Positions 2 through 53,947 of a stretch of DNA of 53,948 bases are shown piece after piece (the stretch's first letter is position 1; each line of letters begins with the position of its first letter). The notes under the pieces are model-generated. The model had not been told where the DNA came from, did no database searches, and worked only from the letters and a program-made list of their open reading frames with translations. Where the stretch lies: positions 1-53,948 of IMG/VR virus record IMGVR_UViG_3300043408_000051, one strand, 5' to 3'. The DNA is from a virus (taxonomy: Duplodnaviria > Caudoviricetes). The position numbers were made by a program, and so were the translations under genes.

Positions 2-172
2 GAAAATCTAAAAGAAGAATACGGAGTCACTCTTCCGTTAGACGTTTGGAAAGAGGCTGTTGATTACGCACCAACAGGCGATGACATCATGGGTATCTAT
101 GGAGTAATTCAAGATGAGATTACTGCAAGATTAAAAAAACGCGGTATCGAACTAACAGAAGTGGAGGCATAA
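2..172 (+). CDS. hypothetical protein, 5'-truncated
   Basis: Open frame from window start (ENLKEEYGVTL...EVEA*), stop at 170-172; contains the GGAGG RBS for the next gene. Confidence 0.6.
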   Translation, partial: ENLKEEYGVTLPLDVWKEAVDYAPTGDDIMGIYGVIQDEITARLKKRGIELTEVEA

Positions 173-175
173 CTT

Positions 176-538
176 ATGGGTAAACAAATCGCAGTAATTA
201 TCTCTTCAAAAGAAGACATCGAACTAAGCAATCTTGCTAATGCAATTACAGGTGCAGGACTATCTTTAATTGCTGACGGAATTGTTAAAGTTGACGGAGA
301 AGTTTACGTTCGTGTTGTTGACTTTGATAATGCAACATACATCGCTAAAGACTCTAACTACGGTTGGGCAAGTGGTTTGTGTTTAGTAGATACAAACAAC
401 TGGTCAAAAGAAGACTGGGAAGCGATAGACAACCTAACTGATTCAGAACTTAATGAGTTGGGAAGCATAATTAACAACGACCCTTCATACACTCCGTATA
501 AGTTTGTTCAAACACAGGAGGATTATCGTGGCGAATAA
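176..538 (+). CDS. hypothetical protein
   Basis: 120-aa ORF, GGAGG RBS, packed in operon. Confidence 0.7.
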   Translation: MGKQIAVIISSKEDIELSNLANAITGAGLSLIADGIVKVDGEVYVRVVDFDNATYIAKDSNYGWASGLCLVDTNNWSKEDWEAIDNLTDSELNELGSIINNDPSYTPYKFVQTQEDYRGE

Positions 539-8589: not shown

Positions 8590-9276
8590 TGTTATCAGAT
8601 AATTACTCAATGCCTTGCTGAATGATTTTGGTGGTTTCTGCTTCGTTCAAACCCCCATTTGGAAGGTCTTTTAGAGCCTGTGCTCGGTCACCAAAAATGG
8701 CTGAAAGCACCCCTCCTGACGACTGTCGTTCGGCTGTAATCCTAATGAACTCGCGGTTCTCTTCCAACTCTTTCATGCCCTTAACCAACTTAAAAAGACG
8801 GTCAATTTCTTGGGAAGTGTTGGGGTCAGGGTAGCCTCCATTTAACTCTTCCGCAAACCTTGAGAAGGCAACTCTAGCCCCTTGCATCTCTATAACGGCA
8901 TTTAATAGGGCTTTTAACTGTTCTTTTGTCTGAATTGCAACAGGCAGATTAAAGGCACAAGAGTTCTGTGGTTTGAAGGCTGGGCAGTTAGAAGCAACGA
9001 AACAAGTGTCGCATTGACGTAAAGAAGTGCCTGTGGTTTGGACTAATGGGACTTCTTTAAGAACGTCGTTCCCCTCGTCATCTGTGTCCACAATCGTCTT
9101 CATTTTGTAGCCAAAAACAGGGAGGCTTGTAACCTCTTGAGGGTCTCTTTCCACCAGTTTTTTAGGCTCTTCTACTTCAGAATCTTTCCGCATCTCCAAG
9201 TCACTGTTATCAGAAGGGTGACCCCATGTTTCCGCGAAAGTGCTAAGTAGGGGTGTCTCGCTGTTATCAGATAACA
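8590..9276. repeat. three copies of TGTTATCAGA, one being the perfect palindrome TGTTATC-A-GATAACA
   Basis: Copies start at 8590, 9205 and 9262 (palindrome 9262-9276). Confidence 0.6.
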
Positions 9277-10120
9277 AAGGGTCTTTTCCACCTTCAATTA
9301 TGTGAAGGTCAGGGCGTTTCTTATCCATAGATTTCTCCAACTGTTGGTATGACCAGACTGCAACCTTAGAGGATTCCACCCCATTGTTCTTTAAGAACTC
9401 ATCGTAGTCTAAATTAGCCTTGCTTATTACTGACGAGTAGCGTTTTCGTGCTTGGCTCATCATCTTCTTGGGATACCGAACAATCTTTGTTCCATCCCAA
9501 ATTATGGTTTCCCCATTCCTCATAGGAGATAGCCAAGACAGGGTTGTAGCGGTAGTGAACGGTATTTGACGAAGGTTATCAGGCTTGGCTGAGCCTAGGG
9601 CGTGGAACTTCGTACCATACTGGCTAGAAAGCCCTCTGGTAACCCCTGCAAGGCTCGTACAGGCTTCAATAGTGGCGTGGGGTATGGCGATATTTGAATA
9701 GCGTTTAGCCCATTCTCGCAGGACTGGAAGCCCGTAGGAGTCATGCCAAACAACCCACAATTTTGGGTCATGTTCAAAGGAAGCCCGCTCTTGGAGAATC
9801 CACTCTAGCCCTAGGGTCTGAGAATCTGCTTCAACAAACCCCAGAATAGAATCCAGGTTATTGGCGACAAACTCCTGGTATTCAGCCCCTAAAGAAGTTA
9901 ATTCCTCTTTAGAAAGCCCATCCCGTTCAGCCTGGGCAATGCCAGAATCTACCAAGATGTCTAGTGTTGGTAAGAAGTGCTCAGAAACCAACCACAGTTT
10001 CTTTTGAGGCAATCCACGCTTCTTTAAGGCGTAAAAAGAAAGTGCCATGCGGGTAACACCCATGGATTCCAGCAGTGTTCTGTTGCTGCCAACCTCTGTT
10101 CCCCCGTAAATAATCTTCAT
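8603..10120 (-). CDS. degenerate TGT/DpdA-like barrel fused to a 4-Cys cluster and helical C-terminal domain
   Basis: LVDSG, KFHALG and PFTTATTLSW..PMRNG (cf. DSG, HxxG, SxDSTSW..xRxG of TGT-fold proteins); CDTC-x5-C-x8-C. Confidence 0.5.
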   Translation of the reverse strand: MKIIYGGTEVGSNRTLLESMGVTRMALSFYALKKRGLPQKKLWLVSEHFLPTLDILVDSGIAQAERDGLSKEELTSLGAEYQEFVANNLDSILGFVEADSQTLGLEWILQERASFEHDPKLWVVWHDSYGLPVLREWAKRYSNIAIPHATIEACTSLAGVTRGLSSQYGTKFHALGSAKPDNLRQIPFTTATTLSWLSPMRNGETIIWDGTKIVRYPKKMMSQARKRYSSVISKANLDYDEFLKNNGVESSKVAVWSYQQLEKSMDKKRPDLHIIEGGKDPLLSDNSETPLLSTFAETWGHPSDNSDLEMRKDSEVEEPKKLVERDPQEVTSLPVFGYKMKTIVDTDDEGNDVLKEVPLVQTTGTSLRQCDTCFVASNCPAFKPQNSCAFNLPVAIQTKEQLKALLNAVIEMQGARVAFSRFAEELNGGYPDPNTSQEIDRLFKLVKGMKELEENREFIRITAERQSSGGVLSAIFGDRAQALKDLPNGGLNEAETTKIIQQGIE

Positions 10121-37610: not shown

Positions 37611-37892
37611 TTATTCTCCTTCTGTGTTTGTAGGTTCTATAGTAACAGCCCCCCATAGTCCAATGGGGCATGAAGCATGGGCTAATTTTGTTTTCTCTGT
37701 CATAAAACACCCACATTTAGTACACGTTTTAGTGGCTTTAACTAAATGTTTACATCCAAGACAATGATTAAGACGGTAATCCCGAGTTTCATCGTCTACT
37801 CGCTTTACATTAGGGTTAAGTAAATCCCATGGACGAACAGGGTCACCTGGGTTTTTTTCTTTCCATAACTGCCACGGACTTTTTTCACTCAT
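37611..37892 (-). CDS. Cys-rich DUF6171-like protein
   Basis: RLNHCLGC...CTKCGCFM..K.....CPIGLW. Confidence 0.65.
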   Translation of the reverse strand: MSEKSPWQLWKEKNPGDPVRPWDLLNPNVKRVDDETRDYRLNHCLGCKHLVKATKTCTKCGCFMTEKTKLAHASCPIGLWGAVTIEPTNTEGE

Positions 37893-37893
37893 A

Positions 37894-39210
37894 TTATGCT
37901 CCTGGTTGCTTTACCTGTATTGAACCAATTGTATTACCCTCTTGGTAATTTGAAGGGTAACCAAATATACCGAAGTTACTTCCCGCAGGAGAGGTAAACG
38001 AGGAGTAAGACAAGACCTTAATCTGGTCTGAGTACGCGTTATCTCTATACACGTTTACTACCAAATCAGGCCCTACTCCAAGAACTCGAACAGCCTTAAA
38101 GTTTTCCCCAATATCAAACTGTTGTTCTACAGTGATAGTTCCGTTAACTGACTTAACTAGATACATTTTGTAATCATAATTGTATCCAGTAGCGGTTTGT
38201 TCTGCAACTGGGCAGACTTGACGAGAACCTGTTTGAGCACAGTTTGGGTAACCACAAACAACGTTTTGAGTTGTAGTTCCTCCTGGACAACTTAAAGTTG
38301 TTGTACACACGTCTGGGTTAGCAGTTATACATGCTCCTGGAACACTCTCATATCCAATGCAAGATTCGGCATAACTTCCTGGTAGTTGTTCACACACTTG
38401 AGTTGTAACGTTTCTTGTTGTACAGACTGTATCTCTATCACAACAGAAGGACGATGTTGTACACACGTCTGGTCCAGGACTACAAACTCTTCCCCATTTA
38501 GGATAGTTATAACAAGTAATTGGTCCTGCTGTACAAGTTGTTTTGCTGCACGTTTTAATACAGACATTAGAGCAAGTTGTTTCAGGCATAGTTACATATT
38601 GGCAAGACAATCCACCAGATATGTAGGTGGTTGTGCAGCCATAACCAACGAGTTGGTCAGGGGCACGCACTGCACACCCACCTGATGTACAACTTTGAGT
38701 TGAGGTGTAACCACCAGGACAAATTGTTTGCTGACAAATATTATCTACAATGCAATAGCCTTGATTAACTAACGCCTGCGGGCAAAAAGAATACGTATAA
38801 GCAGTCTGGTTATTCCAACCAACTAAGCCCCACCAAGTAGTCGAAGAGTCCGCTCTAACTATTACACCAACGCCTGGGACCATCTCATTAGCCTGTAACT
38901 CAAAATCTGTTAAACCAGCATCAACTAAAGCAATTGGATAAGTTGATTTTGAAGTAGCAATTTGTGCTTTTCCATCAACTATATTAAATGTACCCCGAGA
39001 AACAGTCCAAAGTTGTCCTGTAGGAGATGTTCCTAGAGAAGATGCGTTTGCTCTTTCAAAAAAGTCTTTAAACTCAGATACAAAGAATTTACGCCAACTA
39101 CCGTCAACCTTAACGTAACCTTCTTTAGCCTTTAACCAAGCACCACCACTTTTAAAAAAGACTGAGCCTGACGAAACATATTCGTTGGCTACTTTAATCT
39201 GAATAGGCAT
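37894..39210 (-). CDS. tail fibre/adhesin: beta-sandwich with a 26-Cys insert
   Basis: VKVDGSW N-terminus, DFFERAN..LG lectin-like start, Cys-rich aa 143-333. Confidence 0.65.
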   Translation of the reverse strand: MPIQIKVANEYVSSGSVFFKSGGAWLKAKEGYVKVDGSWRKFFVSEFKDFFERANASSLGTSPTGQLWTVSRGTFNIVDGKAQIATSKSTYPIALVDAGLTDFELQANEMVPGVGVIVRADSSTTWWGLVGWNNQTAYTYSFCPQALVNQGYCIVDNICQQTICPGGYTSTQSCTSGGCAVRAPDQLVGYGCTTTYISGGLSCQYVTMPETTCSNVCIKTCSKTTCTAGPITCYNYPKWGRVCSPGPDVCTTSSFCCDRDTVCTTRNVTTQVCEQLPGSYAESCIGYESVPGACITANPDVCTTTLSCPGGTTTQNVVCGYPNCAQTGSRQVCPVAEQTATGYNYDYKMYLVKSVNGTITVEQQFDIGENFKAVRVLGVGPDLVVNVYRDNAYSDQIKVLSYSSFTSPAGSNFGIFGYPSNYQEGNTIGSIQVKQPGA

Positions 39211-39221
39211 ATTACTTAGAC

Positions 39222-39890
39222 CTACACAGTGTACTTAAGCCAAATATCTCCGTTATTTCCGCCAGTTGGGTCAGAAGTAGACACGGTGATATTACGAAGG
39301 CGGGAAGTTAATGCTTGGTCACCAGTAAGTGTTCCGCCAGTAATCTGGATAGTTGTGTCTACAGATAAAACTGAAGGATTAGAGTCAGAGTCCACCCAAA
39401 GAGTTCCTTGAGGTAATCCCAACGCTACGCCATCTGGCTGAGCCTGTTGATGAAGAACAGGTTTAATTTCTTGATTATTGATGAAAAGTTTTCCATCTTT
39501 GTCAACTTTAGTTAGGGTTGTTCCTGCTGCATTTTCAAATCGTAGTAAGTCTGCTGTTTGACTAGTAAATCCCTTTAGTTTCAAAGGAATGATTGCTGCA
39601 CCATTAGCCTGAATAGTATCTCCACCAGTGTTGTGTGTGTACTGAGTGTGAGAATCTCCAGAAATTCCGTATTCAATATTAGCAATACGTGCTTTTAAAG
39701 TTGCCCAAGTTTGGGTAGTTTTATCAAGAGTGCCTACCCAACCACTACTTATTTGTGGGTCAGTTCCAATAGTTGCTTGTAGAGCACGAACTTCATCTTG
39801 TAACGCATTAACGTGGTCTGCTAATACAAGGTCGGTAAAATCAACCTTGGTAGTAAAGCCTTTGACACCTGAAGGATACGAAGCGGGCAT
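39222..39890 (-). CDS. tail fibre protein
   Basis: ADHVNALQDEV, HTQY, ends VSTSDPTGGNNGDIW. Confidence 0.65.
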   Translation of the reverse strand: MPASYPSGVKGFTTKVDFTDLVLADHVNALQDEVRALQATIGTDPQISSGWVGTLDKTTQTWATLKARIANIEYGISGDSHTQYTHNTGGDTIQANGAAIIPLKLKGFTSQTADLLRFENAAGTTLTKVDKDGKLFINNQEIKPVLHQQAQPDGVALGLPQGTLWVDSDSNPSVLSVDTTIQITGGTLTGDQALTSRLRNITVSTSDPTGGNNGDIWLKYTV

Positions 39891-39959: not shown

Positions 39960-40424
39960 TTAATGACTATGGCTAATGTTTGCTTTTTGGGTTATTTGAG
40001 TTTCTAAGGTAGCAATTCGTGTTTCATGGTCTTTTAGAGCAGCAGCCATGGCTAAAAGGGTGGCAACCAAATCAATCTCCGTAGTTCCATTGGCTGTACG
40101 CTCTGTTTTAAAATACGAAGTTAACCCTGTTAAAGAAACAGAGTCAGACAAAACTTTAACGTTTACACGTTTTCCATTTTTTGGTTTTCCAAAATTTCCA
40201 CTCCAAATTGGGTAACCTGGGTCACCACCTTCAAAGGCAATCCATACACCCTCACCCACATCAGGAACTTGTGTTTTAAGACTTGAAGTTTCTAAAGGCC
40301 ACGCCCAATTTAATTCTGCATCGCCAAATAATTGTGGCACTTTGCATTTGATTCTTCTATGTCCTTCAGAGTCTTTATTGTGAGTAACTACTCCTCGGTA
40401 AGTTCCTGGATACTCATTACTCAT
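39960..40424 (-). CDS. baseplate spike (gp5/gpV/VgrG OB-fold)
   Basis: YRGVV..NKD....RIKCKVPQ...WAWP...PDVGEGVWIAFEGGDPGYPIW; ends HSH. Confidence 0.85.
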   Translation of the reverse strand: MSNEYPGTYRGVVTHNKDSEGHRRIKCKVPQLFGDAELNWAWPLETSSLKTQVPDVGEGVWIAFEGGDPGYPIWSGNFGKPKNGKRVNVKVLSDSVSLTGLTSYFKTERTANGTTEIDLVATLLAMAAALKDHETRIATLETQITQKANISHSH

Positions 40425-41977
40425 TAGAGGACCTCAAGTACCACGTCTGGTTCTGCAAAAGTAAATATTTCATTTGGTGCAGCAGAAATTGCTGCCAAAC
40501 TCGGTGTTCCACCTGTTTTATAAAGAAAACGACATTTAGCCAGTTTGACACCCTCAACTGTTTGAAGAAGAGACTCTACGTTTTGAACAGTTAATTCTTG
40601 TCCAAAATCAACGAAGTTATACGAGTAGTTTTCAACAATGGCTGCTTTTATTGCTTTTTCAACAACTGTTTGACTAAATTCTGGTTGTCTTGTGTATTGA
40701 AGGTTCATAGTGACTGGAACGTATACGGGTTTAACAACAGTTAGTGTTGTTCCAACAAGCATTTTGTTTGCTAAAAAGGCTTCTACATCTGTTTTTAATA
40801 GGTTCCATTCTAAAGTTGCGGTTGGAACATTGTTGATAACCTCAATGCCAGGAGTAGCATCAAAATCAGAAAAAGAACGATAAGGAGCAACATATAAAGT
40901 TACTGCAGTGGCAGAAGTTCCGACTGCTTTTGCTTTTCCGCAATTTTCAACTGCCAAGGCTAAATTTTGAAAATCATCTAGAGTTACTGCTCTATTTTGA
41001 GTACGTAGATAAAGAGGTGCACTTATACGAATAGAGTCATTAGACTCTGGCTCATTTCCTCCAACAGCACCTTTAACGTTATTTACATCTAGTACGCCAT
41101 TTAAAGCAGAAACCTGTGTTTGTGAAAGACCAGGGACACGTGCAATATTAGTTAAAGTACCGCTTGGAACATTTCCAGAAATTCCTCCGCCAACAACATA
41201 TTTTGCTCTAATTGCTGATTGATATGTTGGAATTGCACCCGATACACCATCTCCAAAGAGTACAAAAACCTCATTATCTGCTGTTAAGCGTGTCGTATAC
41301 ACAGCATCGTTTGCACTAAAGTCAATTAAGTGACTTACTCTTTGCCACTTTTTCCAAGCAGTTCCACCTTGGACATAAATCTCTACACTATTTGAAACAA
41401 CTGGAAAATCTTCAATAAGAAACGTTTGAGATGGCTCTGCATCAGAAGTACCGAGTAAAACACCGTAAACGTTGTTTGCTTCAACTGTATTTAATTCTCC
41501 TTGATAGGCAAGAACTGTTGCTTCTCCTCGTGCTTGATTAGCAAATGGCGGAACAATAATGCTATCTGTTGTTGTAAAGGTGACGGTTTCTACAGTGTCG
41601 TTAGCAATTACTTCTCCAGAAACTCTAGTTTCTGCTGGAACGGTAACTGCAGAACCAGAGTTGTTATAAAAAACAACATCAACCGATGCGTTTTTATACC
41701 CAGAAGGAACATACCCATAGGTTTCTGCAATTGCTAAAATACTTTCACGCTGAGTTGCAGTTGACAAAAACGACTCATTAGCGATACGGTCAATGTAGTA
41801 GTTTGCAACGTCGCCAAGATATGCAAAGGCTTCTGCTAAAACTACACCGAAGTCGCTATTATCGGCACCATTCCATTCAGGAATTCTTTCCTTAATTCTT
41901 GCAATTAATTCTTCACGAAGGGCTTCGTAGTCCCTACTTGTGTAGTCAATTGTTACTGGGGTTTCATTAATTGCCAT
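40424..41977 (-). CDS. baseplate wedge protein (J/gp6-like)
   Basis: IDYTSRDY, ANESFLSTATQRES, FGDGVSG.IP, GG.EPES, RAVTLDDF. Confidence 0.88.
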   Translation of the reverse strand: MAINETPVTIDYTSRDYEALREELIARIKERIPEWNGADNSDFGVVLAEAFAYLGDVANYYIDRIANESFLSTATQRESILAIAETYGYVPSGYKNASVDVVFYNNSGSAVTVPAETRVSGEVIANDTVETVTFTTTDSIIVPPFANQARGEATVLAYQGELNTVEANNVYGVLLGTSDAEPSQTFLIEDFPVVSNSVEIYVQGGTAWKKWQRVSHLIDFSANDAVYTTRLTADNEVFVLFGDGVSGAIPTYQSAIRAKYVVGGGISGNVPSGTLTNIARVPGLSQTQVSALNGVLDVNNVKGAVGGNEPESNDSIRISAPLYLRTQNRAVTLDDFQNLALAVENCGKAKAVGTSATAVTLYVAPYRSFSDFDATPGIEVINNVPTATLEWNLLKTDVEAFLANKMLVGTTLTVVKPVYVPVTMNLQYTRQPEFSQTVVEKAIKAAIVENYSYNFVDFGQELTVQNVESLLQTVEGVKLAKCRFLYKTGGTPSLAAISAAPNEIFTFAEPDVVLEVL

Positions 41978-43911: not shown

Positions 43912-45237
43912 TTACTTTGCATCAATCGTTGTTGTATCGTGGAATCTATGTGCTGAAATAGTTACTATCGATAAAGTAGGAATCATATTTTCAGTAAATA
44001 GGATATGTTTAACGCTTACATTAATAATGCGTGCTAAGTATCTCAGTTTTCTACCTAGGTGCATTTCAATAGCCATACCATTTAACCAACCAACATCTGC
44101 TGTTTTTGTACCACGGAGGGGGCTTTTATACCCACCCATTTCACCATTTACCGCTTTAAACAGAAACTCTAAATCGTACATAGTTCCAAAGTCTTTAATT
44201 AACTTTCGGTCTTCTGCTTTTACAACTTCTGGGTAATACTGCAAAGACTTCTCATCAGAGTCAATTGGAGCAAAAGAACTATTAGAATTAACACTGTAGG
44301 TTGCTAGTGCGTTCATGTCTTCTATTCTATTCAAATAGAGTTGAAAACTAATAGTGCTACTTTGAGTTGGGGCAGTTATCATGTTTGCTTGGTCTTTTCC
44401 AGACATCATTAACTCTGGAGAAATACCTTGCAATGTTCCAATAGTTTGGTCAACAGATTGTGGATTGTAATGAAATCTAAAACCGTAAGGTATTTTAAAA
44501 CCACCAGTTATTGCTTTTTCTTTATCAGACTGTCGTGATAACGCAGCATCTATCGCCTTTTTATTAGGAACAATAAAGCCTCTATTAGTGTCGCCGTCAC
44601 CAAAAGTGCTTAAAGTAGCAAGCATTTTTGAAGCCAACATAGGTTCAACCGCTCTTGATACTAAGGCTCTATCAACAATTGAGTCGTTTCTAAAGTAAGC
44701 ACTTTTAACCATCGGAGCATTAAATCGTATAGTAGGAGCAGCAGCAGGAGGTTTAGGAGGTTGTTTTGTATTTTTATTACTGCTGTTGTTGCTTTTGTTA
44801 TTTTTAGCATCTTGAAGTGCTTTTTTAACTCTTAGTTCTTCGCGGTATGTTTCTGCATCAGTTTTTAATCCTTTTGCTTTTGTAGCATACTCATTCTGTA
44901 ATTTTTTAATGCTGTTATCAATTTTAGTAATAGTGTTATCAGCATCAATATAGTCTTTTTTAGCAATGGCTATCTGGTTTGCTGGAGCATTAGCCAATAC
45001 GAGAGAGTTATACACATCTTGAAGACGGCTACGTTCTTGTGAAATACGCTTTTTTAAAGCCTCTTGTGTTTCAATTTGTTGAGCAAGTCCCTTAAGAGTT
45101 TTTTGAGTTGCCTTTGCTGTTTCAGCCTTTTTTCGAGCCTCTTCTTCTTTTTTACGTTCATCTCTAGCAGCAGTAACTCCAGCAGCCAAAGTAGCCTCTT
45201 GGCGTGCTTTTGCACCTAATCCTTTTACGTCAGGCAT
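43912..45237 (-). CDS. baseplate/tail-tube initiator-like protein with N-terminal coiled coil
   Basis: FRFHYNP, ISFQLYLNR, GTMYDLEFL, FTENMIP; between the TMP and LysM genes. Confidence 0.55.
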   Translation of the reverse strand: MPDVKGLGAKARQEATLAAGVTAARDERKKEEEARKKAETAKATQKTLKGLAQQIETQEALKKRISQERSRLQDVYNSLVLANAPANQIAIAKKDYIDADNTITKIDNSIKKLQNEYATKAKGLKTDAETYREELRVKKALQDAKNNKSNNSSNKNTKQPPKPPAAAPTIRFNAPMVKSAYFRNDSIVDRALVSRAVEPMLASKMLATLSTFGDGDTNRGFIVPNKKAIDAALSRQSDKEKAITGGFKIPYGFRFHYNPQSVDQTIGTLQGISPELMMSGKDQANMITAPTQSSTISFQLYLNRIEDMNALATYSVNSNSSFAPIDSDEKSLQYYPEVVKAEDRKLIKDFGTMYDLEFLFKAVNGEMGGYKSPLRGTKTADVGWLNGMAIEMHLGRKLRYLARIINVSVKHILFTENMIPTLSIVTISAHRFHDTTTIDAK

Positions 45238-47957
45238 TATTTCTTACCTACTAACTTAAATAGATTTTCTTTTTCAAGTTGTGTTTTTACAATTTCAACA
45301 AGGTTCATAGCCTCTGCATACGATGCTTGTTGAACATTTACATTGATAGTTATAGAAGGTGCTAAGGTAACTCCCGTAGAAGATGAACCTAGTGTTGCTA
45401 CAGAAGGAGAACCACCACCTTGAAATTTGTATGGGTTTTGACCAGTTTTACCAGTCATCCATGCTGAGTTATTGATTGCAGATAAAATTTGCTCAGTAGA
45501 TTGGCCACTTCTAAGTGCATTAACAATGCCAGCATAACCACGTTCACTTGCATTTTTACCTGTTAAGGTTCCAACAGTTGCTGCATATCCATCTTCCCAA
45601 GACTTATAACTTTGGACTCCAACAGAATTCATGCTACTAGAGCCATTAAGAGAAAGTGTTGTATTTAGTGGATTGTAGTTTGCACTGTTTTTCCAGTGAC
45701 CACCTTCATGACGCATCCATGTTGTAAGAGCGTTGATAGCAGCATCATTAACAGGAGCACCTAATTTCGTAAGGAGACCTGCAGCCCATTCCTTTTCACT
45801 TCCAGTTCCAAGAATTACTCCAGAACCGCCACCACTAGTTTTTGCACCACTTGTGCCACCACTTAATGGATTTATTCCAGCACTTGCTGCTAACCCAAGC
45901 AATGAATCAGAACCGTATTGTTTTAAGTCATAATTCTGTGTTTGAATTCCAGAAACACCTGAACCAACACCAGCACCTAAAATGCTACCTAAACCAACTG
46001 CTCCTGCTTTTGTTAATTCTTCAGGATTTACTGGATTATTTTTTCCCTTACGTACTTCATAATGCAAATGAGGTCCAGTTACTTTTCCAGTATCACCGCT
46101 TTTTGCAATTAACTGTCCTCTGCTAACAACAGAACCTACAGAAACTAATACCTCAGACAAGTGACCGTACAAAGTTTGATAGCCGTTTCCATGGTCTATT
46201 TCAACAGTTTTTCCGTAGTCTGAACCAGGATTTGTGTTTATAACTATTCCATCTAACGATGCATGAACAGGAGTACCAACAGGACACGGATAATCTTGAC
46301 CTGTATGAGTTCCACCAGACCAAAGATTTCCTGATGCACCGTAAGGTGTTCCTACCCCACCGTTAGTAATTGGAGAAGCAGGGTTTGAACTCCCAGTACT
46401 ACTTCCACCAAAAGATGCTCCGTAACCTGGAGTACCACCACCAGAACCAAACCACCCAGCAATTCCACCAACACCAGCACCAATTACTGTTCCAACACCT
46501 GGAAAAATTGCTGTGCCAATTGCTGCTCCAATACCAGCAGCAGCAGCCGTAGAACCAGCACGAGTAACACTTTGGTTTACACCTAATTTATTACCTAGTG
46601 CTTTTCCACCCTTACCTGTTAAATACCCAGCAGCACCTGCTGCAAGAACGGTTCCACCTGCAGCAGCAGCACTAATACCTGCAGCACCTGCAGCAGCAGC
46701 AGTACCACCACCTGCTAAAGCCATACCGCCTTTTAGAACTGCACCCGCAGTCATAAGTCCAATAATTGTTTGAACACCTGCAAGGATTCCTCCTACTGCA
46801 ACACCAATTCCTTGTCCTGCACGTGACTCACCCATACCTCCCAAAAATCCAGAAACTCGTCCAGCAACACCAGCCATACTTTCTAATGCAGGATTAACAG
46901 TGTTTACAATTAAATCTGCTGCTGATTTAAAACCTGCTAATACAGGCTCTGTGTATGTATTTAAAACAGATGTATCGGAAGTAGTTATGCGTTGTTTATC
47001 TGCTAAAGGATTTTGCCCATACCCTAGTTTTGATAAATCTGTTGGCTTTCCTTGTGCCCTATCAACAGAATATTGCATAAATAACTGTCTTTGGTCTTCT
47101 GTCATACCTAAATCAGTTGCAGTTTTTCCAAAAATACCTGCTTGGAAACTTGTCATTGTTTCTTCTAGGGACATCTTGCCTTGTCCCTGAGTTAAGCGAC
47201 TGTAGATTTGACCAAATATTTCAGATTGGTTTCTAGCCTTACCAGTATTTGGGTCATAGGTGCTAATACCAATGTTGTACAACCTAGAAGAAAAATCTCC
47301 TTGGGTAAAACCAGACATAGCAACCATGGCATTTTCATTTGCCATATTCATGTAACGTGCAGCACCACCAACGTCTGCAACTAAAGCGTTGTATTGAGCA
47401 CTTCCTGGCATGATTCCACGTGCTGCAGCAATCGAAGCAATATTAGAAGGAGCAAGTGTGCTTGTTACACCACCTGCTAAACCACCAAAAGTTGCTTTAG
47501 TAATTCCTTGGTAACTCATATTAGAACGGATAGAGGCTCCGTAATAATTACCAGCACTTGCTCCAACTTCAGCAACTCCTGGAACTGCTGCCATTACTCC
47601 AGCAGCAATACCAAAGGTTGCTTGTGCAACACCTTGTGCAACTCCTAGTGCTTTGGCTCCACGAGTAGGTGTCAAACCATAGCGAGTAGCCTCCATACCT
47701 TCTCGCATAGCGATTTCGGCAGTGCTATCAACTCTTTCTTGTCCACCAAAAGTTGCTTTTTCCATGTGAGGCATCTGGCTACCTTGACCAGTACCAATAT
47801 GGCGGTCACCACCGCCCTTGGCGGATTTTGCTTTTCCAGCAACTCCGCCCATAGAACCTTCAAGGCGTTTGGTAATTTGCTCAGCAGAAGTCAGGCTTTT
47901 GACAATGCTGGATAATAATTCGTCGGTTTGTTTTAACGAATCATTTAATTCTGCCAC
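45237..47957 (-). CDS. tape measure protein with M23 peptidase and lysozyme-like domains
   Basis: Ala/Gly-rich helical body with hydrophobic segments; HTGQD...YGHL...GPHLHYEV (M23); WMRHEGG..NYNPLNTT. Confidence 0.85.
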   Translation of the reverse strand: MAELNDSLKQTDELLSSIVKSLTSAEQITKRLEGSMGGVAGKAKSAKGGGDRHIGTGQGSQMPHMEKATFGGQERVDSTAEIAMREGMEATRYGLTPTRGAKALGVAQGVAQATFGIAAGVMAAVPGVAEVGASAGNYYGASIRSNMSYQGITKATFGGLAGGVTSTLAPSNIASIAAARGIMPGSAQYNALVADVGGAARYMNMANENAMVAMSGFTQGDFSSRLYNIGISTYDPNTGKARNQSEIFGQIYSRLTQGQGKMSLEETMTSFQAGIFGKTATDLGMTEDQRQLFMQYSVDRAQGKPTDLSKLGYGQNPLADKQRITTSDTSVLNTYTEPVLAGFKSAADLIVNTVNPALESMAGVAGRVSGFLGGMGESRAGQGIGVAVGGILAGVQTIIGLMTAGAVLKGGMALAGGGTAAAAGAAGISAAAAGGTVLAAGAAGYLTGKGGKALGNKLGVNQSVTRAGSTAAAAGIGAAIGTAIFPGVGTVIGAGVGGIAGWFGSGGGTPGYGASFGGSSTGSSNPASPITNGGVGTPYGASGNLWSGGTHTGQDYPCPVGTPVHASLDGIVINTNPGSDYGKTVEIDHGNGYQTLYGHLSEVLVSVGSVVSRGQLIAKSGDTGKVTGPHLHYEVRKGKNNPVNPEELTKAGAVGLGSILGAGVGSGVSGIQTQNYDLKQYGSDSLLGLAASAGINPLSGGTSGAKTSGGGSGVILGTGSEKEWAAGLLTKLGAPVNDAAINALTTWMRHEGGHWKNSANYNPLNTTLSLNGSSSMNSVGVQSYKSWEDGYAATVGTLTGKNASERGYAGIVNALRSGQSTEQILSAINNSAWMTGKTGQNPYKFQGGGSPSVATLGSSSTGVTLAPSITINVNVQQASYAEAMNLVEIVKTQLEKENLFKLVGKK

Positions 47958-53389: not shown

Positions 53390-53947
53390 TTATGCTGCTA
53401 TGTAAGTTCCATTAACGTAAATCTTACTTGCTGTAGTTAAGGTAACTGGGGTGCCTTGAGCAAATAGAGATTCAACAACAGCAGAGTTTGGACCTGCTGC
53501 TTTTATGTAATGCAAATCAAGTGTCGTGCTTCCAGCCAAATGGTCTGCATTGAGTATGGAATGTCCCCCGTTATCAGGGGCAACCGCAGGGTCTACATGT
53601 ACCCAACCATTAAAGTGGTTCATCATATTTGCTGCTGGAGCAACTGGAAGTTGGAGTTTATATTGCCCAGTTCCAAAAGAAGTAACAGTTGATAGATTTA
53701 CGATAATGTAAAAAGTTACCAACTTACCTGCTTGAACATAATAACTTTCATAGGTTGGATAAGTTGCGTTTGTTCCAGTAAATGTTAACCCTGTTGCAGA
53801 AAAAACAGGAGACCATCTCACTGGTTGAGGATTTAATGCAGGACCAGTAGGACCTGTTGCTCCTGCTGCACCAGTTGCTCCAGTTGCTCCAACAGGACCT
53901 GTTGCTCCTGCTGCACCAGTTGCTCCAGTTGCTCCAACAGGACCTGT
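53390..53947 (-). CDS. collagen-like fibre protein, 5'-truncated by window edge
   Basis: Frame stays open upstream of 53821 and reads GPVGATGATGAAGAT repeats, then a beta-rich knob. Confidence 0.8.
   Translation of the reverse strand, partial: TGPVGATGATGAAGATGPVGATGATGAAGATGPTGPALNPQPVRWSPVFSATGLTFTGTNATYPTYESYYVQAGKLVTFYIIVNLSTVTSFGTGQYKLQLPVAPAANMMNHFNGWVHVDPAVAPDNGGHSILNADHLAGSTTLDLHYIKAAGPNSAVVESLFAQGTPVTLTTASKIYVNGTYIAA

Follow-up and report, generated by a model that had tools for sequence, protein, structure and literature searches.

How can a phage tail protein carry 26 cysteines (Cys) within 191 residues, spaced as mirror images on either side of a short loop, and what might such an arrangement build? 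The question arises at one gene in a 53,948-base stretch of Caudoviricetes DNA (IMG/VR record IMGVR_UViG_3300043408_000051), the whole of which is called the window below. An earlier note, made from the letters alone, had read the insert as a long antiparallel β-hairpin, cross-linked by nested Cys pairs, that interrupts a β-sandwich and presents a receptor-binding tip. Spacing statistics, the coupled gain and loss of Cys among homologues, covariation between other residues and a structure model all point to such a hairpin. We put the probability at roughly 0.68 that the protein is a concanavalin A (ConA)-like lectin head bearing a single antiparallel two-stranded ribbon with about 13 nested Cys–Cys rungs, which would serve as a host-recognition 'whisker'.

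Cysteine spacing

The gene lies on the minus strand of the window, and the insert, amino acids (aa) 143–333, maps exactly to window positions 38212-38784. The parts of the gene referred to below, with the ConA-like sandwich halves assigned by VIA-align and the strands taken from an AlphaFold2 (AF2) model with its predicted local distance difference test scores (pLDDT), are as follows.

37894-39210, minus strand: whole gene, 438 aa plus TAA stop (37894-37896); open reading frame (ORF) of a baseplate-associated tail protein, putative receptor-binding protein
39076-39210, minus strand: aa 1-45, N-terminal region of short strands (phrog_25859 match, AF2 strands, conservation)
38785-39075, minus strand: aa 46-142, N-terminal half of a ConA-like lectin/carbohydrate-binding module (CBM) β-sandwich (pLDDT 86-93)
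38212-38784, minus strand: aa 143-333, 26-Cys insert, read as a two-stranded β-ribbon with about 13 nested Cys–Cys rungs
38512-38784, minus strand: aa 143-233, ascending arm, Cys 1-13 (AF2 strands)
38485-38511, minus strand: aa 234-242, tip loop YNYPKWGRV, flanked by AF2 strands 231-236 and 240-245
38212-38484, minus strand: aa 243-333, descending arm, Cys 14-26 (AF2 strands)
38290-38700, minus strand: aa 171-307, hypervariable distal two thirds of both arms, with a conserved Cys scaffold
38431-38445, minus strand: aa 256-260, CCDRD, which with C217 and C221 makes up a conserved mid-ribbon node
37897-38211, minus strand: aa 334-438, C-terminal half of the ConA-like sandwich (pLDDT 86-94 for most of it)

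The pattern described in the earlier note was reproduced in full. All 26 Cys of the protein lie in aa 143–333 and none outside, 13 on each side of C233-YNYPKWGRV-C243: 143, 153, 159, 164, 174, 179, 192, 203, 213, 217, 221, 226 and 233 on the left arm, and 243, 250, 256, 257, 263, 273, 284, 294, 302, 308, 319, 324 and 333 on the right. Counted outward from the loop, the gaps are 6,4,3,3,9,10,12,4,9,4,5,9 on the left and 6,5,0,5,9,10,9,7,5,10,4,8 on the right; both recomputed sums equal 78, and the local block matches (6/6, 10/10, 9/9, 10/10 and 16/16) follow from these lists. When the Cys are paired in nested fashion, the two residue numbers (i+j) add up to 476 in 7 of the 13 pairs and deviate from it by −4 to +2 in the other six. 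When the 25 gaps were shuffled 200,000 times, a summed deviation as small occurred in a fraction of 4e-5, and random placement of the Cys matched it in 0 of 200,000 trials. The mirror spacing is not a product of chance.

The insert consists of 13.6% Cys, against 1.0% over the window ORFs of at least 110 aa. Threonine is the commonest of its 191 residues (30), and there are 16 valines. Large hydrophobic residues are scarce (5 Leu, 8 Ile, 1 Phe, 1 Met and 1 Trp), and the histidine count is zero.

Coupled gain and loss of cysteines

Two sets of homologues were used. A word-indexed search gave a close family of 45 proteins (394–447 aa, 31–100% identity, none of them named), aligned as alignment A1, and a profile search of 1.84 billion representatives returned 1534 proteins at E ≤1e-3, 326 of them at ≤1e-10. 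Of 150 listed from these 1534, 148 were new; removal of 15 that exceed 700 aa and of 11 that have under four Cys left 122 as the distant set. In IMG/VR, 38 loci matched, and locus counts given here cover 25 of the 38.

Cys come in even numbers throughout. The count is even in 44 of the 45 close homologues (range 20–34), in 25 of 25 loci (range 16–32) and in 109 of the 122 distant representatives, with 13 odd (binomial p 5e-20). Mirror spacing recurs as well, most even-Cys close homologues reaching p ≤0.001. In the distant set 103 representatives have an even count of 10 or more Cys; 29 of them pass the same test at p ≤0.05 and 19 at p ≤0.01, where chance would give about 5 and about 1.

Presence or absence of Cys in each column was then compared across the 45 sequences, with parsimony changes counted on a tree built from the flank columns only. 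For each variable Cys (at least three parsimony changes) whose nested partner also varies, that partner was always the best match. The rungs concerned are listed with the mismatches between the two columns, the mismatches of the next best column and the number of changes in each partner.

Rung 159-319: 0 mismatches in 45; next best 3; changes 3 and 3
Rung 174-302: 1 mismatch in 45; next best 17; changes 10 and 9
Rung 213-263: 0 mismatches in 45; next best 3; changes 3 and 3
Rung 226-250: 0 mismatches in 45; next best 14; changes 7 and 7
Rung 233-243: 1 mismatch in 45; next best 3; changes 3 and 4

Among those listed, the phylogenetically independent contrasts all run in the same direction and none in the opposite one. 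Individual sequences show how rungs come and go: P0012 lacks both 213 and 263 and no other rung, P0035 lacks 159 and 319 in addition to other rungs, and 28-Cys sequences have gained an extra rung pairwise, for example at 224 together with an inserted Cys before 256. Rungs also shift, each arm moving by two residues in the sense opposite to the other: 226/250 becomes 224/252, and 192/284 becomes 194/282. The sum i+j stays at 476, as it should if the two Cys face each other across the strands of an antiparallel ribbon. Four positions of the CCDRD motif, C256, C257, D258 and D260, are invariant in 45 of 45 homologues, and R259 is present in at least 90%.

Antiparallel register

Residues other than Cys report the same register. 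We computed mutual information (MI) with average product correction on the 38 closest sequences; the seven most distant, in which the insert alignment is unreliable, were dropped. Cross-arm MI has a mean z of 1.87 where i+j−476 equals 0 and falls on both sides to −0.26 beyond |12|. The top 25 cross-arm pairs all lie within |5| of 476, eight of them at 0, and span 170/304 to 231/245. Over the whole protein the top 100 pairs divide into 46 local, 32 on the antidiagonal and 22 others, of which nine join the hairpin base (136–150 with 335–346), two are near the antidiagonal, seven are local to the tip, three are short-range (182/188, 70/76 and 71/85) and one, 57/200, is unexplained. No second diagonal was seen among these 100 pairs, and there is therefore no sign that the ribbon folds back on itself.

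The AF2 model built on alignment A1 has a mean pLDDT of 81.2 and a predicted template modelling (TM) score of 0.53. The insert is all β at pLDDT 69–86, with strands 148-156, 158-163, 169-175, 179-182, 186-190, 193-197, 201-227 and 231-236 in the ascending arm and 240-245, 249-275, 279-283, 286-290, 294-297, 301-307, 313-318 and 324-332 in the descending one. Seven strand pairs are exact mirror images under i → 476−i (231-236/240-245, 201-227/249-275, 193-197/279-283, 186-190/286-290, 179-182/294-297, 169-175/301-307 and 158-163/313-318), as fits the nested register, and two basal pairs are offset by 4. The strands break at Gly/Pro-rich spots of both arms, for example at CPGGY 164–168 opposite CPGGT 308–312. 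The core of the earlier proposal, one antiparallel hairpin whose arms, each about 95 residues long, are joined by nested Cys pairs, is thus strongly supported by four lines: parity, Cys covariation, non-Cys covariation and the modelled strands. A homotrimer prediction of aa 140–336 scored 0.02 against a mark of 0.42, in a run made without controls, and weighs neither for nor against a trimer.

Foldseek gave no row at E ≤1e-3 for the model against the Protein Data Bank (PDB). Nearly all of the weak rows (E 3e-3 to 0.1, TM 0.04–0.12) are toxins in pore form, whose hairpins are very long. Pore-form β-barrel toxins such as aerolysin, lysenin and epsilon toxin share with the model the outline of a head with a very long hairpin, but their heads have another fold, the scores are weak (E at best 3e-3, TM ≤0.12), and their hairpins carry no disulfides and exist only within oligomeric barrels. 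We read the match as one of shape rather than of kinship.

The lectin-like head

On the model, aa 46–142 and 334–438 together form a ConA-like lectin/CBM two-sheet β-sandwich (jelly roll). A VIA-align search of 48,161 chains gave the CBM66 structure 4b1m_A with Z 16.6 (root-mean-square deviation, rmsd, 2.1 Å; 145 residues aligned over model range 66..435), the receptor-binding domain of phage TM4 gp23 (9n6a_A) with Z 15.4 (rmsd 3.0 Å, 173 aligned), the mycobacteriophage Douge baseplate (8zdo_a) with Z 14.8 and the CBM2 of phage J-1 Dit (5ly8) with Z 12.5. Legume lectins and ERGIC-53 reach Z of about 12–13.5 against the flank model. The sandwich resembles those seen in receptor-binding proteins of actinophages. 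The aligned model ranges run from about aa 45–66 to 435–438 and skip the insert, and the 4b1m_A match, which spans both flanks, strongly supports the idea that they are one β-sandwich interrupted by the insert.

To ConA-like phage receptor-binding heads and CBMs the likeness lies in the flank fold and in the baseplate context of the gene; a match at sequence level is absent. A profile search of the PDB with the window protein gave 0 hits at E ≤1, and Pfam has no family for it at E ≤0.1 or for any of the 45 homologues (0/45) at E ≤0.01. Judged by their titles alone, the matched ConA-like entries give no sign of a ribbon insert like the one described here. The BFVD gave matches of two kinds: proteins without characterisation from uncultured tailed phages, with E of 5e-20 at best, and proteins annotated as minor tail proteins in Gordonia, Arthrobacter and Rhodococcus phages. 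The N-terminal aa 1–45, highly conserved and modelled as six short strands (pLDDT 52–73), are probably the attachment part. The only PHROGs match, phrog_25859 of unknown function, also falls here (aa 11–44, 34 residues, E 5.9e-5).

Variation along the ribbon

Column entropy over the 35 closest sequences averages 0.33–0.36 bits in the flanks, 0.43 at the hairpin base (143–170 and 308–333), 1.67 in the mid-arms, 1.76 in the tip region and 1.46 in the loop 234–242. In the alignment the loop is of few types, about 11 sequences reading xN[YF]PKWGRx and about 27 xREDRxTR. Two expectations attached to the hairpin idea did not hold. The tip is not the most variable part, since loop 234–242 stays below the mid-arms, and indels do not fall symmetrically in both arms: in the close family the arms are fixed at 64 and 67 residues between anchor Cys, and length varies only between C221 and C256, that is, at the tip (27–45 residues, or 8 in the truncated forms P0042/P0044), and arm-length changes in distant homologues are unmatched.

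Pairwise Nei–Gojobori estimates of nonsynonymous (dN) and synonymous (dS) divergence, over the window and 10 close loci (55 pairs), give dN 0.079 and dN/dS 0.13 for the flanks; in the distal arms dN is 0.60 and dN/dS is 0.49, rising to 0.61 when Cys codons are left out. The arms are either much less constrained or diversifying. No template of a diversity-generating retroelement was seen, in that no direct or inverted repeat family of at least 30 nucleotides (nt) in the window involves 38212-38784, and reverse transcriptases were not searched for systematically; one repeat arm (38782-38812, 31 nt, 71%) lies at the very edge of the insert.

Proposed structure and alternatives

In the structure we propose, two neighbouring sandwich strands (about aa 126–142 and 338–355) would run on into the ribbon of aa 143–333, about 95 residues per arm, which would turn at loop 234–242. 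Its rungs would be 143-333, 153-324, 159-319, 164-308, 174-302, 179-294, 192-284, 203-273, 213-263, 217-257, 221-256, 226-250 and 233-243. In the released virion these are most likely disulfides, for which the even Cys counts (44 of 45 and 109 of 122 sequences) speak indirectly, the pre-aligned Cys of the folded hairpin perhaps oxidising into a ladder after lysis or earlier. With the ladder in place of a hydrophobic core, a single chain could hold a thin, tough projection. A β-strand rises by about 3.3 Å per residue, and a straight ribbon of about 95 residue pairs would be up to about 30 nm long. Jutting from the lectin head, the ribbon would leave the surface of its distal two-thirds free to vary, and this surface, together with one of the few tip types, would be the putative means of host recognition. 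Such a role is suggested by the baseplate/fibre neighbourhood, the fold of a receptor-binding head, the hypervariable arms and the confinement of indels to the tip.

Several points weigh against this reading. The cytoplasm, where phage tails are put together, is reducing. Covariation is silent on eight of the 13 rungs, whose Cys are invariant or nearly so, and the partners in these come from symmetry and the AF2 register; at the node, 217/221 with 256/257 are off the regular register (pair sums 474 and 477) and their pairing is uncertain. AF2 was built on the same 45-sequence alignment as the covariation and is not fully independent of it, and the 'extended' shape leans on the single-diagonal covariation map and on the kind of Foldseek matches. 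One close homologue, P0025, has 25 Cys, keeping C174 without C302; the lone C174 is either a free thiol or a sequencing error. In the distant homologues P0039–P0045 the mirror test is weaker and the arms do not vary together in length (left 60–73, right 59–65; the correlation is not significant). Farther out, 74 of the 103 distant representatives fail the mirror-spacing test, and some relatives are direct tandem repeats, such as P0085, which mimic symmetry; the architecture is not uniform across the family. Positive selection on the arms found no support, with dN/dS above 1 in 0 of 45–53 usable pairs and dS near saturation.

The alternative that survives best, unlikely in our judgement and still a serious contender, keeps the ladder and changes its surroundings. 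The ribbons would bundle, for example three of them into a six-stranded rod, or lie along another fibre protein, and the insert would be the shaft of an oligomeric fibre. A two-stranded ribbon without a core of its own invites such packing, structure entry titles place phage receptor-binding proteins of similar head fold in baseplate assemblies of many copies, and fibre-like genes are close by, the 222-aa gene upstream and the 145-aa and 730-aa CBM_4_9 genes downstream. Both arms are hypervariable along most of their length, however, which is unexpected for a buried interface; they contain few large hydrophobic residues; and the covariation map has one diagonal and no further contact sets, with the qualification that homo-oligomer contacts could hide on that same diagonal.

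More doubtful is a ladder of metal ions (Zn, Fe or Cu) held between the strands by the paired Cys. Unlike disulfides, which the reducing cytoplasm disfavours, it could assemble there; the invariant C213/C217/C221 with C256/C257/C263, plus D258 and D260, could form a multi-Cys site; and the neighbouring DUF6171-like protein (CxxC...CxxCxC) looks like a small metal-binding protein. Against this, Cys counts change by two and not by four, and single rungs are lost or shifted alone, which points to pairs and away from metal sites made of four Cys. No His is available in the insert, most rungs lie 4–12 residues from the next, too far for four-ligand sites, and solved myophage tails carry disulfides.

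A ladder between two chains, antiparallel arm to arm in a domain-swapped fashion, would give the same i+j covariation, which cannot separate an intrachain contact from a symmetric interchain one. We regard it as very improbable: the 9-residue loop closed by the covarying 233-243 and the modelled strands 231-236/240-245 fit an intrachain turn, the shortening of the tip in P0042/P0044 is simple for a hairpin, and many interchain schemes need no even Cys parity. Least credible is the opposing case named in the earlier note, in which EGF-, knottin- or zinc-finger-like modules, each small and compact, follow one another, the Cys pair locally and the mirrored spacing is an accident. A Cys-rich sequence punctuated by Gly and Pro is typical of such modules. 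Covarying Cys, however, lie 50 (213-263), 128 (174-302) and 160 (159-319) residues apart, beyond any one 30–40-aa module and enough to exclude tandem small domains, the non-Cys covariation follows the antidiagonal, the spacing has a chance of 4e-5 and none of the 45 members matches Pfam.

Wider family

The Cys-rich insert is not the only one found on this head. Many of the 1534 proteins match the profile once in the N-flank and once in the C-flank, and what lies between is different. Four of the proteins, P0067, P0133, P0181 and P0188, have the same lectin flanks and zero Cys, with Tyr/Ser/Pro/Gly-rich low-complexity inserts (for example PPSYYAG repeats) at the same site, which suggests a Cys-free version of the fibrous insert. 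The lectin head thus seems, from these sequences, to be a socket for various fibrous inserts. At the Cys-rich end, P0148 has six gaps of 11, one of 17 and again six of 11, and P0159 has 36 Cys. Giants of 1200–2471 aa (P0052, P0066, P0071, P0093 and others) contain 4–8 matches to head aa 48–127, as arrays of lectin half-domains.

Good support for the cystine-ladder hairpin is confined to the subfamily to which the window protein belongs. As a tentative extension, which we hold to be possible and less likely than its opposite, there could be a large and as yet undescribed family of phage tail proteins in which the lectin head is a socket for single-chain fibrous inserts, many of them cystine-ladder ribbons of 10–20 or more rungs. 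They would amount to a third fibre design beside trimeric β-helices/spirals and coiled coils, evolving by rungs that are added, deleted and shifted in register-keeping pairs. With the window protein as query, tblastn found no match in 50,697 phage records at E 1e-3, so that none of the cultured phages there has a recognisable homologue, and the ESM Atlas has only unnamed clusters, the nearest named ones scoring below 0.9.

Comparison with known proteins

Cross-strand cystine ladders are known from short secreted host-defence peptides of about 18 residues, with three rungs in θ-defensins and two in protegrin, tachyplesin, gomesin and arenicin. The likeness is close in principle, namely one chain, antiparallel strands and nested cross-strand Cys pairs, the rungs replacing a hydrophobic core. 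The insert differs in scale, with about 13 rungs (10–17 across homologues) in 191 aa, in its place within a phage lectin domain and in its unrelated sequence. It would work as a cystine ladder does, yet falls outside the host-defence peptide families (about 18–30 aa).

The analogy drawn in the earlier note with the bovine ultralong heavy-chain complementarity-determining region 3 (CDR-H3) holds loosely: in both, a long β-ribbon with a variable, Cys-containing part leaves a β-sandwich. It fails on Cys placement and on scaffold. To our knowledge the bovine stalk is short and free of disulfides, with the Cys in the knob, whereas those of the window protein run along the whole ribbon; the bovine scaffold is an immunoglobulin V domain, whereas the one here is ConA-like.

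Oxidised Cys do occur in phage tails. Work on two contractile-tailed phages, cyanophage Pam3 (cryo-electron microscopy, mass spectrometry and dithiothreitol treatment; PMC9942802) and Agrobacterium phage Milano (cryo-electron microscopy; PMC10811340), shows that their virions contain oxidised Cys in the proteins of tail, baseplate and fibres and that these Cys are functionally important. As described there, these disulfides are scattered inter- and intra-subunit staples and not a regular intrachain hairpin ladder. Our literature search, judged from listings and abstracts, found no such long ladder described in phage or other proteins; the ladder literature concerns peptides of 2–3 rungs. The ladder principle and the phage receptor-binding protein with a lectin head are thus already known, and the scale of the ladder and its putative use as a single-chain fibre would be new.

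If the proposed structure is right, this would be by far the longest cross-strand cystine ladder found, and a single chain could form a projection of nanometre thickness that reaches out for tens of nanometres, with neither a hydrophobic core nor trimerisation. It would bear on how uncultured phages build and diversify their organs of host recognition, on the number of ordered disulfides possible in a particle that is put together in the cytoplasm, and on protein design, as a natural, evolvable 'rope-ladder' scaffold with a hypervariable surface. As the family is large and has neither a Pfam model nor a solved structure, one structure would annotate many metagenomic proteins.

Genomic context

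On the minus strand the genes run from a tail sheath (phrog_23) and a tape measure with an M23-type peptidase region through tail/baseplate proteins, including a Baseplate_J and a gpV/OB-fold protein, to a 222-aa protein with a tail-fibre C-terminus, the 438-aa Cys-rich gene, the 93-aa DUF6171-like protein, a 61-aa protein, a 145-aa protein and a 730-aa CBM_4_9 protein, and then to replication genes. Because of this order of sheath, tape measure, baseplate and fibre genes, the window is read as a fragment of the genome of an uncultured myophage in which the Cys-rich gene sits in the baseplate/fibre module. Three neighbours bear on it.

40424-41977, minus strand: Baseplate J-like wedge protein (PF04865, E 1.8e-8; phrog_219, E 3.6e-47)
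39222-39890, minus strand: upstream gene, 222 aa, Cys-free (phrog_14064, tail fiber, E 1.7e-5, aa 196-220)
37611-37892, minus strand: downstream gene, 93-aa DUF6171-like protein (Pfam DUF6171, E 1e-4, below the curated cut-off; phrog_13558, E 5e-15)

The tail-fibre likeness of the 222-aa protein is confined to its last 25 residues, and an upstream ORF of 220–225 aa is conserved in the IMG/VR loci examined. Among cultured phages the closest sheaths are those of Streptomyces myophages (37–38% identity), which offers a lead, and only a lead, to an actinobacterial host.

In every one of the 25 loci examined, the gene directly 3' of the Cys-rich one encodes a DUF6171-like protein of 91–98 aa; the two genes meet as TAA-T-ATG in the window and overlap by 4 nt in some loci. 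The DUF6171-like protein has six conserved Cys, C44, C47, C57, C60, C62 and C75 (CxxC...CxxCxC...CP.G.W), and may possibly help to form or protect the Cys ladder. Its AF2 model (pLDDT 82) found no fold match in the PDB (VIA best Z 2.5, Foldseek 0 rows), and as nothing was matched, an Erv-like sulfhydryl oxidase or another known fold was rejected. So was the idea of a dedicated partner of the Cys-rich tail protein, homologues occurring also outside tail modules, for example in Stenotrophomonas phage Moby. In Synechococcus phage S-IOM18 the DUF6171-like homologue adjoins a 138-aa protein with a CPQC motif. No thioredoxin-, glutaredoxin- or Erv-like gene was found among 10 further window ORFs scanned, eight of them with CxxC.

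Other features of the window stand apart from the Cys-rich gene. The putative tape measure protein (45237-47957, minus strand, 906 aa) has its M23-type metallo-endopeptidase region at aa 520–660, where several PHROG families match with E as low as 4e-25. A 505-aa queuine tRNA-ribosyltransferase-like protein (8603-10120, minus strand; phrog_887, E 2e-54) adjoins ribonucleotide reductase and may be part of a 7-deazaguanine DNA-modification system. A second Cys-rich ORF, of 121 aa with 12 Cys (9.9%) and two CxxC, lies on the plus strand at 2021-2386 and has no Pfam match at E ≤0.01. At 53390-53947 on the minus strand, an ORF cut by the window end starts within a collagen-like Gly-X-Y run (GATGATGAAGATGPVGATG...), encoded by a DNA repeat of 9-nt period (repeat family D1) and followed by a globular C-terminal part.

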